The translations under genes were made by a program, and so were the position numbers. From positions 1-41,660 of the IMG/VR virus record IMGVR_UViG_2778261202_000006: a stretch of DNA of 41,660 nucleotides; one strand, given 5' to 3'. Shown in pieces: positions 2,459-36,073 of the stretch. This DNA is from a virus. Its lineage: Duplodnaviria; Heunggongvirae; Uroviricota; Caudoviricetes. The notes beneath the pieces are model-generated. The model ran no database searches. It saw only the letters and a program-made list of their open reading frames with translations, and had not been told where the DNA came from. Within the stretch, counting starts at the first letter, position 1. Every line of letters begins with the position of its first letter.

Positions 2459-4321
2459 TCAAAAATCATTTCCCTCCCATGAGCATGCTGTTATCGAACA
2501 CGATAAGAACTTAAAAAAATAAGCGCTGGTTGTTGTTGGTGCTATTTTTAGTCCCAAAGCTATATTTTTAGCTGTTTCTAAACAAACTGATATTCCAGAA
2601 TTGTTATTTAGCGTATAAGAACGCATGGGTGTTAATGTGTAATAATCATCAGTTGTATAGAATATTTCCACAGTAGTGCTTGAGTCAGTGGCATGATCTC
2701 TATACCCAATTGAAATGGCAATACTATTCATTGTTTCTATATCAAGTGCAGCATTCCCACCACTATTTCTGAATGCCAGCCCTGAATCTGAGAATGCTTG
2801 ATGCCTTTCATCTGTTGGTGTTCCGGTATTCAATACCGCCCATGGCCTCACATCATCTGATGTATATGTCTGATTCAGATTCCTGATAAGTCCGCCGACA
2901 CCAAGTCCTGGCCCCCACAGATAGTATTTGTACTGATAAGATTCTTGCTCAAAAATATTATTGAAAACTCTTGCTTGTTTATAGAAATCATTATCTGTAA
3001 TTATATCAAGGTGCGTTGGATCTGCTACTGATGACTCCCAAGAAAAACTTGCATACGATCCATCACCAAAGCGGAAAAAACTTTTAGAAAATGAAATTTG
3101 CTTTTCTTTATTCGAAAAAACATCTCCAGTAAAAAGACCAACAGCAGGAATCAGCTTTGCATGTGAGGATTTATACTTTAACTCACCAAAAGAAATAATA
3201 GCATTCTTTTTATTGTCAACATCAGATACTGTCCCAATGTAGTAATAATCGACAAAAATAATATCATAATGTTTTGAGATGGTATCATTACCATATCCCC
3301 AATCGCCGTTATCAGCAATACAAAGTGACTTCCCTGTAACAGCTCTCCATGCATTGATTCTGGCATCTTGTTCCGCAACTGAAACCCCCTGATGCTGGGG
3401 TTCATCAAATAAATAATAACCTATTACACAGTCCCTTCTTCCTAAAGACACAATATCAGGTGGTGGCGTATCATTAGGGCTATTGATTATGACATTAATT
3501 CCAACAGCTTCAGCAGCATTGCATGCTTTCTCAAATGTTCCACCATCCGTAAAATTGTATCCATAATGAATAATCGTATTGAAACCAGCGGTCTTAAGCT
3601 GAAGCATATCACATATATCGAAAACACCATGAACCCATGTAGCCTTCATTTTTGAATGATTCACAGGAGTGTAACTATCAAGATTACACGGGACTGAAGG
3701 CCTACGGGTATAAGTAATGGTACTCTTCCCTTCTATCTTGGCACCATTAGGCCAGTCGAAGCGAGACAGAGTTATATTACCGCTAATATAAGCCTTTCCT
3801 GTTCGTTTAATTGCCTCAAGTATCGACTGTTTTGCATCAATGCCGGGGTTTGAATAATCATATCCAAAAAGGGCTATATCAGATTCATTATAAATCTGAT
3901 TATCAATATTTTCTTGTACTGTTTTACCATTACTTGAGCCAATAAGTGATGCCCCTGACGAAGTGGAAATCTCTTGTCTTAACTGATCTGGATCGTACTT
4001 CAATACATTAGGAAAATTGAACTGCAGAGAACCATACGCATCATAAACAGCCATAGAATGGCCTTGCACAGTTACGAATTTGGCAATCTGTCCGTTATAT
4101 ACAGGGTAACCAGCGGCGTTAATGATGATTGGTTGCGAAACAGGAACGTGAGATCCATCTTCGTTCTCTACATAAACCTGAATCTGGTTTTCAGGATTTA
4201 CAGGGTCAGTGTCAATTTTACCAATATAAATTTTGCCATTGGCTACGGCTTTAAAAGAACGAGCCATAGTGAAGAGTTGCGAAGGCATGCTTACCACAAC
4301 ATTTGCGGTGATATCTGACAT
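2459..4321 (-). CDS. gp9: Tailspike protein (P22 gp9-type N-terminal head-binding domain, divergent receptor-binding/enzymatic domain)
   Basis: From internal ATG at 4321 the protein begins [43 protein letters not shown], matching the P22 tailspike N-terminus; GGAG SD 9 nt upstream; six-frame ORF extends 16 codons further upstream to 4369. Confidence 0.9.
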
Positions 4322-30996: not shown

Positions 30997-31135
30997 GACC
31001 TTTCTCCTTCTGCATCAGCTTCACTTTTTCCAACTCAGCCCGGAATCGACCAGGCTGCTTGAAGCTGGACAGGAAGCGATCACGTAGTATGTGTTTGTGA
31101 ATTTTGTCCTGGTAAGGACTGAGTTGTTTTGTCAT
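30989..31135 (-). CDS. Possible small ORF (48 aa) between cII and initiator
   Basis: ATG 31135; stop overlaps initiator start; no family recognised. Confidence 0.3.
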
Positions 31136-31167
31136 AATTACTCCTGTTGATAGATCCAGTAATGACC

Positions 31168-31461
31168 TCAGAATTCCATCTGGATTTGTTCAGAACGCTC
31201 GGTTGCCGCCGGGCGTTTTTTATTGGTGAGAATCGAAGCAACTTGTCGTGCCAATCGAGCCATGTCGTCGTCGACAACACCCCATTCAAGTACAGCAAGC
31301 AGCATTGAGAACTTTGGAATCCAGTCCCTCTTCCACCTGCTGATCTGCGACTTATCAACGCCCACAGCTTCCGCTGTCTTCTCAGTTCCAAGCATTGCGA
31401 TTTTGTTAAGCAACGCACTCTCGATTCGTAGAGCCTCGTTGCGTTTGTTTGCACGAACCAT
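31168..31461 (-). CDS. cII: CII transcriptional activator (lambda-type)
   Basis: From ATG 31461: [75 protein letters not shown].. matches lambda CII by recall. Confidence 0.9.
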
Positions 31462-31518
31462 ATGTAAGTATTTCCTTAACAAATAAGAAGTTAAGCGCAT
31501 CAACTTATGCGCGTTGTA

Positions 31519-31563
31519 TTCCCGCATTTCGGCGGGAATGAGGACCATGACTGTTAAAGAGCA
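31519..31563 (-). promoter_or_regulatory. nutR (boxA plus boxB hairpin)
   Basis: Minus-sense boxA TGCTCTTTAACAG followed by boxB hairpin TTCCCGCCGAAATGCGGGAA between cro and cII. Confidence 0.7.
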
Positions 31564-31569
31564 ATTTGC

Positions 31570-31755
31570 TTATGCCGCTTTGCGGTAAGCGCTTTCTTGA
31601 TACTTCAGGGCGCCAGCTGTAACGACTTCCAGTCGATAGGCGTCTTTCTCTGGGATGACTTCCTTCCACTGAGAGACTGCTGCGTCGCTAATGCCTAACG
31701 CTTTAGCTACAGCACGCTGGGTTCCGAAGTGGTCGATAACATCTTTCTTGTACAT
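31570..31755 (-). CDS. cro: Cro repressor (P22-type)
   Basis: 61 aa MYKKDVIDHFGTQRAVAKALGISDAAVSQWKEVIPEKDAYRLE.. matches P22 Cro by recall. Confidence 0.9.
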   Translation of the reverse strand: MYKKDVIDHFGTQRAVAKALGISDAAVSQWKEVIPEKDAYRLEVVTAGALKYQESAYRKAA

Positions 31756-31769
31756 AGACTCGCTCCGAA

Positions 31770-31835
31770 ATTAAAGAACACTTAAATTATCCACTAAAGG
31801 AATCTTAAGTCAAGTTTATTTAAGATGTCTTAACT
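31770..31835. promoter_or_regulatory. OR operator region (three P22 c2-type 18-bp operators) with divergent promoters
   Basis: ATTAAAGAACACTTAAAT (31770-31787), ACTAAAGGAATCTTAAGT (31793-31810), ATTTAAGATGTCTTAACT (31818-31835), all fitting ANTNAAG-N4-CTTNANT. Confidence 0.75.
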
Positions 31836-32486
31836 ATGAAAACTCAATTGATGGGAGAGCGCATTCGCGCTCGGAGAAAAGAACTCAAGATCAGGCAGGC
31901 CGCACTTGGAAAGATGGTCGGCGTGTCTAATGTTGCCATATCTCAGTGGGAACGCTCTGAGACAGAGCCAAATGGAGAGAATCTTCTCGCCCTGGCTAAT
32001 GCGTTGAAGTGTTCCCCTGACTATCTGATGAAAGGAGAGGAAAGTCTTTCAAACATTGCCTATCACAGTAGGCATGATCCAAGAGGGTCATACCCTCTGA
32101 TTAGCTGGGTGAGCGCAGGATGCTGGATGGAAGCTGTAGAACCATATCATAAGCGTGCAATAGATAACTGGTACGATACAACCGTAGACTGTTCAGAAGA
32201 TTCGTTTTGGTTGGACGTGAAGGGAGACTCAATGACGGCTCCGGCCGGTCTCAGTATCCCTGAAGGAATGATAATACTCGTCGATCCTGAAGTAGAGCCG
32301 CGTAACGGGAAACTGGTAGTTGCAAAGCTCGAAGGAGAAAACGAGGCAACTTTCAAGAAGTTAGTTATTGATGCAGGCAGGAAGTTTCTAAAACCACTTA
32401 ACCCACAATATCCGATGATCGAGATCAACGGAAACTGCAAAATCATCGGCGTAGTTGTCGATGCAAAACTAGCAAACCTTCCATAA
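31836..32486 (+). CDS. c2: Prophage repressor C2 (CI-like, HTH plus S24 peptidase autocleavage domain)
   Basis: 216 aa; matches P22 c2 repressor by recall (..MGERIRARRKELKIRQAALGKMVGVSNVAISQWERSETEPNGENLLAL..); Ser/Lys dyad region GDSM..K. Confidence 0.95.
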   Translation: MKTQLMGERIRARRKELKIRQAALGKMVGVSNVAISQWERSETEPNGENLLALANALKCSPDYLMKGEESLSNIAYHSRHDPRGSYPLISWVSAGCWMEAVEPYHKRAIDNWYDTTVDCSEDSFWLDVKGDSMTAPAGLSIPEGMIILVDPEVEPRNGKLVVAKLEGENEATFKKLVIDAGRKFLKPLNPQYPMIEINGNCKIIGVVVDAKLANLP

Positions 32487-32510
32487 GGGGGCATTCGCCC
32501 CTTTTTTTTA
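32487..32510 (+). terminator. Intrinsic terminator after repressor gene
   Basis: GGGGC-ATTC-GCCCC hairpin followed by TTTTTTTT. Confidence 0.65.
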
Positions 32511-32529
32511 TTTCCTTTAAAAATCAAAG

Positions 32530-32610
32530 CCAAACTTAAGTTACGAAAGAAAATTTAAGTTTTCTTCAAAAATACTCTTGACCATTAATTAAAGAGATCT
32601 TAAATTTAAG
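32530..32610. promoter_or_regulatory. Probable OL operator/pL region
   Basis: ATTAAAGAGATCTTAAAT (32588-32605) fits the same operator consensus; further TTAAG half-site-like repeats upstream; lies before nutL and N. Confidence 0.5.
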
Positions 32611-32652
32611 CCATCAGCAGGACGCTGGTAGCCAAACGGAACAGATTGGCAG

Positions 32653-32693
32653 GCTCTTTAACATTGATGGGATTGTCCCGCCGAAATGCGGGA
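32653..32693 (+). promoter_or_regulatory. nutL (boxA plus boxB hairpin)
   Basis: boxA GCTCTTTAACA (32653-32663) and boxB hairpin TCCCGCCGAAATGCGGGA (32676-32693), same boxB as nutR. Confidence 0.7.
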
Positions 32694-32800
32694 ACCAAAG
32701 AGTAGTTGGCTTTGGGGTGACGTGAAGTGCAGCTGCACGACGGCAACCGGAAGATAAGCACCCGGCGCGTCACCGCCAAAGTCAATCATCGGAGGTCAAC

Positions 32801-33100
32801 ATGACAGTAGTCATTACATATCTGGCTGACGATAACGCCAGAAATCGCCGCAGAGCACGCAGACAGGATCAACGTGAACAGGAAATGCAAGAGCAGCGAC
32901 TGGCGCGAAAAATTGCGCTAAAGCTCTCTGGTTGCGTCAGAGCAGATAAAGCAGCATCACTCGGAAGCCTTCGCTGCAAGAAGGCAGAAGAAGTCGAGCG
33001 TAAACAGAACCGTATTTACTACCGGAAGCCACGGAGTGAAATGGGTGTGACTTGTGTTGGTCGCCAGAAAATAAAATTAGGCAGCAAACCACTTATTTGA
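32801..33100 (+). CDS. N: N-like transcription antiterminator (arginine-rich motif)
   Basis: 99 aa; N-terminal arginine-rich motif NARNRRRARRQDQRE; first gene after nutL; GGAGG SD. Confidence 0.65.
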   Translation: MTVVITYLADDNARNRRRARRQDQREQEMQEQRLARKIALKLSGCVRADKAASLGSLRCKKAEEVERKQNRIYYRKPRSEMGVTCVGRQKIKLGSKPLI

Positions 33101-33108
33101 GGTGAGAT

Positions 33109-33267
33109 ATGAACATGAATGTATCTTTAACAAAATCATTGCTTGCCAGTCGTGGATTAAAGATGAAACCAACAAAAAGTTATAAAAACGGCAGTCGATG
33201 CTACTCAGTTTCAGGATGGAGCGGAGAGTACACAATCAAAGGTATTTTGTGGCAGTTAGGATTTTGA
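33109..33267 (+). CDS. Possible small ORF (52 aa)
   Basis: ATG with GAGGTGAG SD directly after N; not in ORF track because under 60 aa. Confidence 0.3.
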   Translation: MNMNVSLTKSLLASRGLKMKPTKSYKNGSRCYSVSGWSGEYTIKGILWQLGF

Positions 33268-33300
33268 TGATTCTTTTGGCAGCAAGACACAGAGGTGAAT

Positions 33301-33435
33301 ATGAACGCAGTTGAGTTTACAAAATGGATGGCAGAGCAAGATATCACAGGAGCCGACGAAAAGGCTGTGTACTACATGGCTATGCTATGGATTCACAAAG
33401 CAAAAGAGGCTGCAAATGCTCTTGGAGGTGAGTGA
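33301..33435 (+). CDS. Possible small ORF (44 aa)
   Basis: ATG with AGAGGTGA SD; stop overlaps next start. Confidence 0.3.
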   Translation: MNAVEFTKWMAEQDITGADEKAVYYMAMLWIHKAKEAANALGGE

Positions 33436-33623
33436 TGAAAGTAAAAATAACTGCTTCTAATACCAGTTTTGTTAGTGTTGGTGATATTACAGAAGTAATA
33501 ACAAACCATGATGGAACACAAGTTATGTGGTCTGATTTCTGTAAAAGATATGAGCGAGTTAGTTGGTGTAAACTCGTATGGGGCGTCGAATACGAAGAAT
33601 TACCTGAAATGCATGACGAATAA
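33435..33623 (+). CDS. Hypothetical protein (62 aa)
   Basis: ATG 33435 preceded by GGAGGTGAG; ORF track starts 3 nt earlier at GTG. Confidence 0.4.
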   Translation: MKVKITASNTSFVSVGDITEVITNHDGTQVMWSDFCKRYERVSWCKLVWGVEYEELPEMHDE

Positions 33624-33628
33624 GCACT

Positions 33629-33656
33629 GTGTATTCATTCCAACGAGTGAATACAC
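33629..33656 (+). other. Perfect 9-bp inverted repeat (GTGTATTCA ... TGAATACAC) with 10-nt spacer, no T-tract
   Basis: Read directly; lies between small ORF stop and tL1-like terminator. Confidence 0.5.
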
Positions 33657-33716
33657 GGAGCAATGTCGCTCGTAACTAAACAGGAGCCGACTTGTTCTGA
33701 TTATTGGAAATCTTCT

Positions 33717-33745
33717 TTGCCCTCCGATGTGGGGGCAATTTTTTT
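33717..33745 (+). terminator. Intrinsic terminator (tL1-like) in early-left operon
   Basis: TTGCCC-tccgatgtg-GGGCAA hairpin followed by TTTTTTT. Confidence 0.65.
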
Positions 33746-33757
33746 GACGGAGGATAT

Positions 33758-34069
33758 ATGAAATTACGTGTCTGGCATATCCCGCAAGTACCTATGAAGC
33801 CGTTCATTGTAGAAGTGGCAAGTGTTGAAGAGGGTGTTCGCCTGATGGACGCACTGGCTGATTATGACGCCTTTCAGTATGACAACAACATCAAGCCTGA
33901 TTACTGCAATGCTAACGGCCTTGAGATGTGGGATGAGAGCCTTACCGATGAAGATTTATCAGATATGGGGCTTACTGATCGCTGGGTGGATTGGTATAGC
34001 GAATGCCAATGTTACGACGACCCACGTAAATATCTCGAAAGCCTGAAAGAAGAAACATCAGCCGCCTAA
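33758..34069 (+). CDS. Hypothetical strongly acidic early protein (103 aa)
   Basis: ATG 33758 with GGAGGA SD; D/E-rich C-terminal half (..EMWDESLTDEDLSDMGLTDRWVDWYSECQCYDDPRKYLESLKEE..); six-frame ORF begins upstream at 33704 across the terminator. Confidence 0.5.
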   Translation: MKLRVWHIPQVPMKPFIVEVASVEEGVRLMDALADYDAFQYDNNIKPDYCNANGLEMWDESLTDEDLSDMGLTDRWVDWYSECQCYDDPRKYLESLKEETSAA

Positions 34070-34144
34070 GCGCGGCTTTACCGCATACCAATAACGCTTC
34101 ACTCGAGGCGTTTTCGTTATGCAATCAAACAGAAGGAGCATCCT

Positions 34145-34315
34145 ATGCAACAGTTCGCTATTGCAGGGGCGGCATCGGTTCGCCCTTTCAACCCAATTTT
34201 ATCGGTGCAGCATTCACGAAAAAACATTTTAACCGGAGCAGACTTTAAACAACCAAGAATGAAAAGTTTGCTCGAAAAGCTTTGGGATATTTTGAAACAA
34301 CAAGGCCGTCCATGA
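34145..34315 (+). CDS. cIII: CIII-like protein (FtsH inhibitor family)
   Basis: 56 aa, MQQFAIAG....SLLEKLWDILKQQGRP pattern resembles lambda CIII; not in ORF track because under 60 aa. Confidence 0.55.
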   Translation: MQQFAIAGAASVRPFNPILSVQHSRKNILTGADFKQPRMKSLLEKLWDILKQQGRP

Positions 34316-34419
34316 GTTTTACAGATAACTGGTCAGACGAAGAATTCATTCGTCAGATGAAAGAAATGCTCAATCAGCACAAAGAACAGGAGAAAGATGA
34401 TGATTCTGACTCTGAATGA
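34312..34419 (+). CDS. Possible micro-ORF (35 aa)
   Basis: ATG overlaps cIII stop (ATGA); acidic C-terminus. Confidence 0.25.
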   Translation: MSFTDNWSDEEFIRQMKEMLNQHKEQEKDDDSDSE

Positions 34420-34708
34420 TAAGCGTGAAATATCGCAAATAATCGCAAATTTTACTGATGAAGATTACGAACGAATCAACAGTGAAGTTGATCGCCTCTG
34501 CAAACGTTGCGACCCAATAAGCGAAATGCTTCGCTCATATAAACCAGATGAACACACTAAGGACGCTATCGACTGGCTGGAAGATGATGACTGTAACTAT
34601 CAGGAAAAAGCCGCTGAATGGTTCTGGGATGCAATAACCGAAAGAGTTAAGGCTGAATATGCCTTCGCAATATTCAAACGCAGACATATTTATGGAGAAG
34701 CTGCATGA
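34397..34708 (+). CDS. Hypothetical protein (103 aa)
   Basis: ATG start, operon context immediately upstream of recT. Confidence 0.5.
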   Translation: MMILTLNDKREISQIIANFTDEDYERINSEVDRLCKRCDPISEMLRSYKPDEHTKDAIDWLEDDDCNYQEKAAEWFWDAITERVKAEYAFAIFKRRHIYGEAA

Positions 34709-35607
34709 GCAATATCGTTGAATTCGTTAAACAGCAAGAGCAGTTATTCTGCGGAGCATTGACTGAACAGACGGTGACATGGGCTAAGGAAAGCCAGTTT
34801 GCAATTCAGTATTTCCAGAAAAACGATTACCTGGCTAAAACAGCACTGGCAAATCCAACCAGCGCACAGAACGCCATCATCAATGTTGCGGCGATCGGCA
34901 TCACCTTAAACCCGGCCAGCAAACTGGCTTATCTGGTTCCTCGCGACGGCATGGTGTGCCTTGATATCAGTTACATGGGATTACTTCATCTTGCGCAATC
35001 GACAGGATCAATTAAGTGGGGGCAATGCAAACTGGTGTACTCAAACGACACCTATGAATCAAATGGCCTTGATTCAGCACCAACCCACAAATACAACGCA
35101 TTTGGTGAGCGAGGCCCTATTGTTGGAGGTTATTGCACGGTTAAAACAGCAGATGGTGACTACCTGACTGAAGAAATGAGTCTGGCAGAAATTAAAGCTG
35201 TGGAAGCAACGAGCAAGGCAAAGAATGGACCGTGGAAGACATTCTGGGAAGAGATGGCGCGTAAAACCATAGTTAAACGCGCCAGCAAATACTGGCCTAA
35301 AGCCCAGCGACTGGATAATGCCATTCACCTGCTTAACGAAGATGAAGGTATGCATCAGGAACCAGTTATGCCGCACAAATCAGAGGAAGATATCCGCGAA
35401 GATGAACGGAAACGCCAGCAGGAAATTATGGAAAAAGCACAACTTCTTTGTGATGAAATGGCTCAGGCAGAAAACATGGATGATTTGAAGCGATATTTTG
35501 CAGAAGCATATCGCCTGACATCTGGAATGAAATTGCAGCAGAACGTACAAGCCATTTACATAGAATGCAAAGCGAAACTTGAGGTTGCCAGTGAGCAAAC
35601 TATATGA
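34705..35607 (+). CDS. recT: RecT-family single-strand annealing recombinase
   Basis: 300 aa; ..AIINVAAIGITLNPASKLAYLVPRDG..GPWKTFWEEMARKTIVKRASKYWP.. typical of RecT family. Confidence 0.8.
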   Translation: MSNIVEFVKQQEQLFCGALTEQTVTWAKESQFAIQYFQKNDYLAKTALANPTSAQNAIINVAAIGITLNPASKLAYLVPRDGMVCLDISYMGLLHLAQSTGSIKWGQCKLVYSNDTYESNGLDSAPTHKYNAFGERGPIVGGYCTVKTADGDYLTEEMSLAEIKAVEATSKAKNGPWKTFWEEMARKTIVKRASKYWPKAQRLDNAIHLLNEDEGMHQEPVMPHKSEEDIREDERKRQQEIMEKAQLLCDEMAQAENMDDLKRYFAEAYRLTSGMKLQQNVQAIYIECKAKLEVASEQTI

Positions 35608-36073
35608 AATAGCCAATGAATACGCAAAATTGATGGATTCAGATTTAGAGCCAGAGATGATTGCTGACACAATAGAAGGAATGGAAGGAGAATTTACCGA
35701 TAAAATAGAGCAACTTCTCGCCATTATTAAAAATGAATCTGGTTATGCTGAACGCCTCAAGGACGAGGCAAAGTCACTGAATGAACGAGCCGCAGTAATT
35801 CAAAATAAGATTGACAGCATTATGGCGTATATAGCGTCATCGCTTGAAATGGTTGGCAAGAAAAAGATTCGAGCAGGTATTCACCAGGTAACAATCCGCA
35901 AACCGTCAGAAACTGTAGAAATCATCGACTCAAGCGCCCTTCCTCCTGAATACGTTGAGTTTGAAACGACAATTAAAGCCGACAAACTGGCAATCAAACA
36001 CCAACTAAAAGCAGGAATAAATATCCCCGGCGCTCAACTCAAAGTTGGGAAACCTTCACTTCTTATCAAATAA
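35591..36073 (+). CDS. Sipho_Gp157-like protein (commonly paired with RecT)
   Basis: Likely GTG start 35591 (GAGG upstream); ORF track starts at TTG 35579; N-terminal ..KLYEIANEYAKLMDSDLEPEMIADTIEGMEGEF.. resembles Gp157 family. Confidence 0.55.
   Translation: MSKLYEIANEYAKLMDSDLEPEMIADTIEGMEGEFTDKIEQLLAIIKNESGYAERLKDEAKSLNERAAVIQNKIDSIMAYIASSLEMVGKKKIRAGIHQVTIRKPSETVEIIDSSALPPEYVEFETTIKADKLAIKHQLKAGINIPGAQLKVGKPSLLIK

Follow-up and report, generated by a model that had tools for sequence, protein, structure and literature searches.

The acidic open reading frame at positions 33758-34069 of the window (the whole stretch of 41,660 nucleotides of phage DNA that was analysed) almost certainly encodes a member of the P22 gp17 family, judging from its sequence matches, and the hairpin and terminator that precede it are not specific to gene 17 but make up, within the PL transcript, a conserved linker placed before a swappable slot. 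The best explanation overall is that gene 17 is a PL-operon counter-exclusion gene of the infecting phage, gated by a tL2a-type terminator, and we regard this explanation as probable. The original prediction was that of a DNA-mimic or anti-restriction factor, expressed at the very start of infection or induction behind a terminator passed with the help of N. Its observation was partly confirmed and its interpretation partly supported: an early factor with which the infecting phage counters a barrier was retained, based on the gp17 family and on two publications (PMC4837284; PMC9409062) and with the dependence on N read from the layout, while DNA mimicry and anti-restriction were not.

Identity and conservation of the gene 17 protein

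The gp17 family owes its name to P22 genetics of decades ago. The protein of the window comprises 103 amino acids, with 23 Asp and Glu against 9 Lys and Arg, a net charge of -14, a pI of 4.12 and 12 aromatic residues, in agreement with its earlier description as acidic and rich in aromatic residues. Its only Pfam match was GP17 (PF17420, 'Superinfection exclusion gene product 17'), which covered profile positions 1-98 of 98 (E=5.1e-56; 187.3 bits against a cut-off of 25), and it also matched phrog_1510 (E=6.9e-58). The NCBIfam search returned nothing for this protein, and no defence-system model of PADLOC matched it at E<=0.1. The sequence was 89.3% identical to P22 gp17 over all 103 residues and 95.1% identical to H-19B gp17, public prophage contigs encode proteins 99-100% identical to it, and the DNA was 97% identical to that of H-19B and several Stx phages. 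The gene order 17-cIII-kil is common to the window, P22, phage L and H-19B. Gene 17 of P22, as well as that of H-19B, ST64T, phage L and Stx phages, is like the window gene in its length, its place in the PL operon before cIII and kil, and the terminator that adjoins it upstream. RefSeq already annotates gene 17 in E. coli prophages; the gene is therefore already known here, and it is in itself ordinary. An alternative TTG start at 33704 was ruled out, since the terminator would fall inside the coding region and all the homologues begin with MKLRVW.

Structure prediction, which had been proposed as a check of DNA mimicry, gave a confident AlphaFold model (64 homologues; pLDDT 92.2, pTM 0.80) with a beta-beta-alpha-beta-alpha-beta-alpha topology. 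This model matched neither a DNA mimic nor any other solved structure, and sequence and profile searches of the PDB with the protein gave nothing meaningful. We found that the window protein carries every residue that is invariant in the family (P9, Q10, F16, L33, Y36, D37, F39, Q40, K46, D48, Y49, N51, W76 and W79); these 14 residues show no variation among 64 close homologues, and among 109 distant homologues (median 46% identity) their conservation is 92% or higher. The most acidic segment, the loop 59-75, is variable in both sequence and length. Acidity itself is conserved in the family, with a mean net charge of -12.6 and a mean pI of 4.3 among 211 homologues. This pattern of conservation in the aligned sequences suggests a specific binding or ligand site on an acidic scaffold.

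Organisation of the leftward early operon

The plus strand of the window corresponds to the direction of the lambdoid leftward early (PL) operon, an operon that is repressed in the lysogen. The features of this region, from the repressor gene to the recombination genes, are given in Table 1.

Table 1. Features of the leftward early region of the window, in order of position.
Feature	Position	Strand	Basis or remark
C2/cI-type repressor gene	31836-32486	+	Terminator at its 3' end
PL-like promoter, followed by leader	3' of the repressor-gene terminator	+	Leader carries nutL
nutL in the PL leader: boxA GCTCTTTAAC and boxB hairpin	32652-32693	+	Identical to the annotated nutL of HK620
N-type antiterminator gene (99 aa, pI 10.6)	32801-33100	+	phrog_271 'anti-termination protein N-like', E=6e-36
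Small ORF 1 after N (52 aa, basic, pI 10.1)	33109-33267	+	Strong Shine-Dalgarno
Small ORF 2 after N	33301-33435	+	Strong Shine-Dalgarno; phrog_24660, E=2.7e-34
Small ORF 3 after N	33435-33623	+	Strong Shine-Dalgarno; phrog_10407, E=6.5e-46
Left linker: GAATAAGCAC (holds the upstream stop codon), hairpin H1 and box GAGCAATGTCGCTCGTAAC (33658-33676)	33616-33676	+	Conserved flanks
Spacer (134 nt)	Between small ORF 3 and gene 17	+	Carries hairpin and terminator
Intrinsic terminator, homologue of lambda/HK620 tL2a	33717-33745	+	Scan, fold and alignment
Shine-Dalgarno GGAGG of gene 17	33749-33753	+	Read from sequence; kept in related loci
Gene 17 homologue (103 aa, acidic, P22 gp17 family)	33758-34069	+	PF17420, phrog_1510
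Right boundary hairpin over the stop codon (GCC GCC TAA)	34060-34077	+	Aligned with lambda ea10 3' end and phage L; -10.4 kcal/mol
Second terminator-like hairpin, tL2b homologue, just 5' of cIII	34093-34118	+	Scan; aligns with HK620 tL2B and lambda ea10-cIII spacer
cIII	34145-34315	+	phrog_550 'CIII', E=1e-22
kil-like gene	34312-34419	+	RefSeq kil annotation on matching E. coli prophage DNA
Second acidic ORF (103 aa, pI 4.65, net charge -9, 12 aromatics)	34397-34708	+	phrog_3486, family without function
RecT-type recombinase gene	3' of the 34397-34708 ORF	+	

The boxB stem of nutL had a folding energy of -10.5 kcal/mol. The N gene showed only a weak match to Pfam N_peptide, and its start region is base-for-base that of HK620 N. 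Gene 17 had been taken to be expressed first after N, which does not hold, since three ORFs with Shine-Dalgarno sequences intervene. For the first of them, Pfam, PHROGs, NCBIfam and PADLOC gave nothing convincing, and the other two were assigned to PHROG families without an assigned function; none of the three resembles lambda Ral, and the 62-aa ORF upstream of gene 17 showed no relationship to it. The searches of PADLOC and NCBIfam with the small neighbours of gene 17 also returned nothing. P22 carries sieB, ral, ORF78 and ORF67 upstream of gene 17, where the window has instead these three small ORFs. Further downstream, the second acidic ORF, which lies just before the RecT-type gene, resembles gene 17 in its acidic and aromatic make-up.

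The terminator and the hairpin upstream of gene 17

The terminator scan detected 11 terminator-like sites in the surrounding 3.5 kb, against 3.2 expected, and the site at 33717-33745 was the first intrinsic terminator found on the plus strand after N in the window. It consists of an 8-bp stem (33717-33738, including 5 G-C pairs) and a run of seven T (33739-33745), with a folding energy of -12.3 kcal/mol (z = -3.1). It had been described as tL1-like: the site is indeed a canonical terminator, but its homology is to tL2a and not to tL1. In particular, the spacer 33624-33744 (121 bp) shares 96.7% identity with the lambda interval that separates ral from ea10 (33925-34045), and the corresponding terminator of HK620 is labelled tL2A and the next one tL2B, with the HK620 tL1 annotated elsewhere. 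A T-run, which we read as a terminator tail, was present just 5' of gene 17 in all but two of 47 distinct upstream sequences (from 79 loci), and the terminator stems upstream of gene 17 differed between lineages. In the minimum-energy fold of the spacer, the UCUUCUU just 5' of the terminator stem pairs with GGAGGAU, the Shine-Dalgarno region of gene 17 (33710-33756). According to this predicted fold, the terminator hairpin might thus also affect the translation initiation of gene 17, though the pairing could be due to chance.

The inverted repeat reported at 33629-33656 is present and lies within a longer stem. As RNA, this hairpin (H1) has a 14-bp stem, formed by 33627-33640 with 33645-33658, and a CAAC loop, with a folding energy of -20.2 kcal/mol (z = -6.7), and the entire spacer folds far better than its shuffles (z = -4.8). 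Perfect 9-bp repeats formed four distinct hairpins in the 41.7-kb window, against about 1.8 registers in shuffles, which is within chance; thus, the case for H1 rests on the comparison across phages. Among 193 instances, the site between the flank GAATAAGCAC and the GAGCAAT box was occupied by at least five unrelated stem sequences, each of which forms a 9-14-bp helix, and in the commonest type the changes sit in the loop or preserve pairing. In an alignment of 69 distinct sequences of H1, which was model-guided and fitted to the structure, 97% of the cells are paired and 10 out of the 14 pairs show changes in both partners; its covariation score was reached by none of 500 shuffles. When the partners were slid, pairing fell to 33-55%. 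The terminator stem was less well aligned in the same alignment (81% of the cells paired). Judging from these sequence comparisons, the stem of H1 is under selection.

No RNA family of Rfam matched the hairpin or the linker at E<=1 over 31000-36000. Our best guess is that H1 is an RNA-level element at cistron boundaries, either a 3' stabiliser or a processing site, and that the conserved flanks would also be the points at which crossovers exchange genes. Some Salmonella-type phages carry the motif 'GCAC, hairpin, GAGCAATATCGC' twice (L056:3585-3625 and 3850-3900), where the two copies flank a 66-aa acidic ORF upstream of gene 17 and differ in their stem sequences; the doubled motif of this locus indicates that the hairpin linker is a repeated boundary element between genes.

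A swappable slot between the tL2a and tL2b homologues

In HK620, tL2A and tL2B directly adjoin each other, with no intervening gene, whereas the two terminators enclose ea10 in lambda and their homologues enclose gene 17 in the window. The linkers are found on both sides of this slot in the window (33616-33745 and 34060-34118), in lambda (L003:1788-1944 and 2295-2390) and in the other loci compared (L089-L206). The linker of the window is the E. coli/lambda version, and that of the P22 type is the Salmonella version. Lambda Ea10 (DUF2528) occupies the same slot, with a net charge of -14, a pI of 4.3, a similar size, and the same left linker and Ala-Ala-stop hairpin, but shows no detectable sequence relationship to the gene 17 protein (hhalign probability 0.4%).

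To survey the content of the slot, we scored the first gene after the linker at 107 unbiased occurrences of the conserved box GAGCAATRTCGCTCGTAAC. The slot was empty, with cIII following directly, in about 42 instances, while ea10 was found in 34, a 322-aa protein in 7, and gene 17 in 5; the others included an HNH endonuclease. The majority of the small proteins encoded there in its place equal gp17 in acidity, with net charges of -14 for Ea10, -12 for a 138-aa protein, -13 for an 84-aa protein, -11 for an 82-aa protein and -9 for a 41-aa protein, and the 82-aa protein belongs to phrog_14587, 'anti-restriction protein'. Several of the slot genes end in Ala-Ala-stop, encoded by the common right boundary hairpin GCCGCCTAAGCGCGGC. 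The terminator therefore controls all that lies 3' of it and not gene 17 in particular, gene 17 being one of several genes at a site of recombinational exchange.

Distribution of the gp17 family

An exhaustive profile search recovered 1204 clusters of the gp17 family at 50% identity, 783 of these at E<=1e-10. The family was present in 326 phage records, including the strictly lytic Ackermannviridae, an N4-species phage and Gamaleyavirus, and also large Bacillus phages. The named carriers are the strictly lytic Vi01-like phages, N4 and Gamaleyavirus, the Bacillus phage SP-10, and ST64T, phage L and Stx phages; the family has been called a hallmark of Kuttervirus (PMC9409062). Identity between homologues of enterobacterial phages, Bacillus phages and one mycobacterial phage was 35-45%. 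In phage AlfredRasser (species Enquatrovirus N4), the homologue (L006:2986-3300) lies two genes 3' of two RNA polymerase II subunit genes, a placement that points to expression at an early or middle stage of this strictly lytic phage.

On plasmids, the family was found in 16 records, 15 of which were non-mobilizable and mostly phage-like or chromosome-sized; these records lend no support to a location of the family in the leading, anti-defence regions of plasmids. Longer members of the family were also recovered, namely a 143-aa form with a C-terminal extension (L056:4001-4432) and other long forms fused to Phage_gp49_66, to DUF6166 or to a segment that weakly matches the RNA polymerase alpha-CTD (P0155, P0172, P0144). 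The fused domains of these longer members gave no clue to function. A partial tandem second copy of the gp17 domain was observed in a few members (P0217, P0236).

Probable counter-exclusion and the alternative explanations

According to two secondary sources, P22 needs gp17 to overcome the exclusion exerted by a resident Fels prophage (PMC4837284; PMC9409062). The two sources conflict as to the excluding prophage and rely on different early publications: PMC4837284 gives Fels-1, after Susskind and Botstein 1978, and PMC9409062 gives Fels-2, after Susskind et al. 1974. In both cases, the role described is the reverse of the name 'superinfection exclusion' that Pfam, PHROGs and RefSeq give to the family. 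Based on this secondary literature and on our own reading of the locus, we consider that the gene 17 protein rather probably has a counter-exclusion role. The presence of the family in strictly lytic phages also argues for a function that serves the infecting phage better than the lysogen.

A different possibility is that gp17 is a host-takeover factor directed against a component conserved among hosts, such as a nucleic-acid-binding protein that Gram-negative and Gram-positive bacteria have in common, in which case the Fels phenotype would be indirect. The 1204 clusters and the identity kept between enterobacterial, Bacillus and mycobacterial phages are consistent with such a general target, as are the very strong conservation of the core of the family and the proximity of the AlfredRasser homologue to the RNA polymerase II subunit genes. 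However, gene 17 is dispensable and its distribution is patchy, with only those five instances in the unbiased slot survey and many lambdoid phages that carry ea10 or an empty slot. An accessory counter-defence gene fits this patchy occupancy better than a core takeover function, and we hold host takeover to be unlikely.

The reading of the original prediction, in which the protein would mimic the backbone of B-DNA with its acidic surface and thereby inhibit type I restriction-modification enzymes, BREX or similar DNA-binding defences in the manner of Ocr and ArdA, appears less likely still, and had no positive support beyond acidity. The charge and pI of the protein, the acidity kept across the 211 homologues, the early position of gene 17, with no recognisable ral between N and gene 17 in the window, and the annotation of one alternative gene of the same slot as anti-restriction are all in line with it. 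Like gp17, Ocr (T7 gp0.3) and ArdA are small and very acidic and are expressed early by an incoming element, but neither their fold nor their sequence was found to resemble it, and it is an aromatic and polar cluster that is conserved in gp17 and not a pattern of charge. DNA mimics share no single fold, so the lack of a fold match is still compatible with mimicry. Aromatic or polar residues, though, make up most of the invariant set, and variation falls in the loop that is the most acidic. Ral itself, with which the protein had also been compared, showed no profile similarity to it (hhalign probability 0.1%), and P22 and phage L have a separate ral, annotated as anti-restriction and located in the same operon, besides gene 17. 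Finally, the phenotype reported is prophage-specific exclusion and not restriction.

That gp17 is a superinfection exclusion protein made by the prophage against incoming phages, as the three databases name it, is highly improbable. Gene 17 lies 3' of N and of a terminator in an operon that is kept repressed during lysogeny, and strictly lytic phages have the family as a hallmark. In addition, gp17 counteracts exclusion according to the publications in which its name is explained, and PADLOC gave no match.

A model for gp17 action and a candidate target

Counter-exclusion by the infecting phage thus being the reading that we prefer, the layout of the operon would imply that N modifies RNA polymerase at nutL after infection or induction, and that the modified polymerase continues past the tL2a-type terminator into gene 17, cIII, kil and the recombination genes. 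The protein would then act for the infecting phage and not for the lysogen, and would neutralise exclusion or abortive infection brought about by a heterologous prophage that resides in the cell, such as Fels in Salmonella. As a small alpha/beta protein, gp17 may bind its target directly through the cluster formed by P9, Q10, Y36, D37, F39, Q40, K46, D48, Y49, N51, W76 and W79, and the conserved negative charge may help it to occupy a basic, probably nucleic-acid-binding, surface. This binding mechanism is a conjecture: the search for structural analogues gave no hint of a partner, and we found nothing relevant to gp17 in the literature on recent anti-defence work.

We also searched the two Fels prophages for genes that gp17 might counteract. 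Fels-2 STM2723.1, a 565-aa 'hypothetical protein' encoded on the minus strand in an accessory hotspot (L207:22639-24336), is a homologue of AbiU/AIPR (PADLOC E=2.7e-112; Pfam AIPR). By homology, it is a candidate target of gp17, which would be relevant only if Fels-2 is the excluding prophage. The eight Fels-1 ORFs considered as candidates, either morons or ORFs of the immunity region, had no defence-related match in Pfam or PADLOC, their sole Pfam match being YcgJ; thus, Fels-1 provided no target candidate.

As a tentative and rather doubtful extension, gp17 could be the founder of a family of phage proteins, large in size (about 1200 clusters at 50% identity), that neutralise a widespread abortive-infection system, for instance that of the AbiU/AIPR protein STM2723.1, and the slot between tL2a and tL2b may serve to exchange small acidic counter-defence genes. 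If this is true, gp17 would found a large counter-abortive-infection family without a solved structural relative. The misleading name 'superinfection exclusion protein' spreads through hundreds of phage records, including those of lytic phages considered for therapy. The target of gp17, once found, would provide both a counter-defence mechanism and the exclusion system that it defeats, and the arrangement of linkers and slot offers a concrete view of how lambdoid phages swap small early accessory genes.
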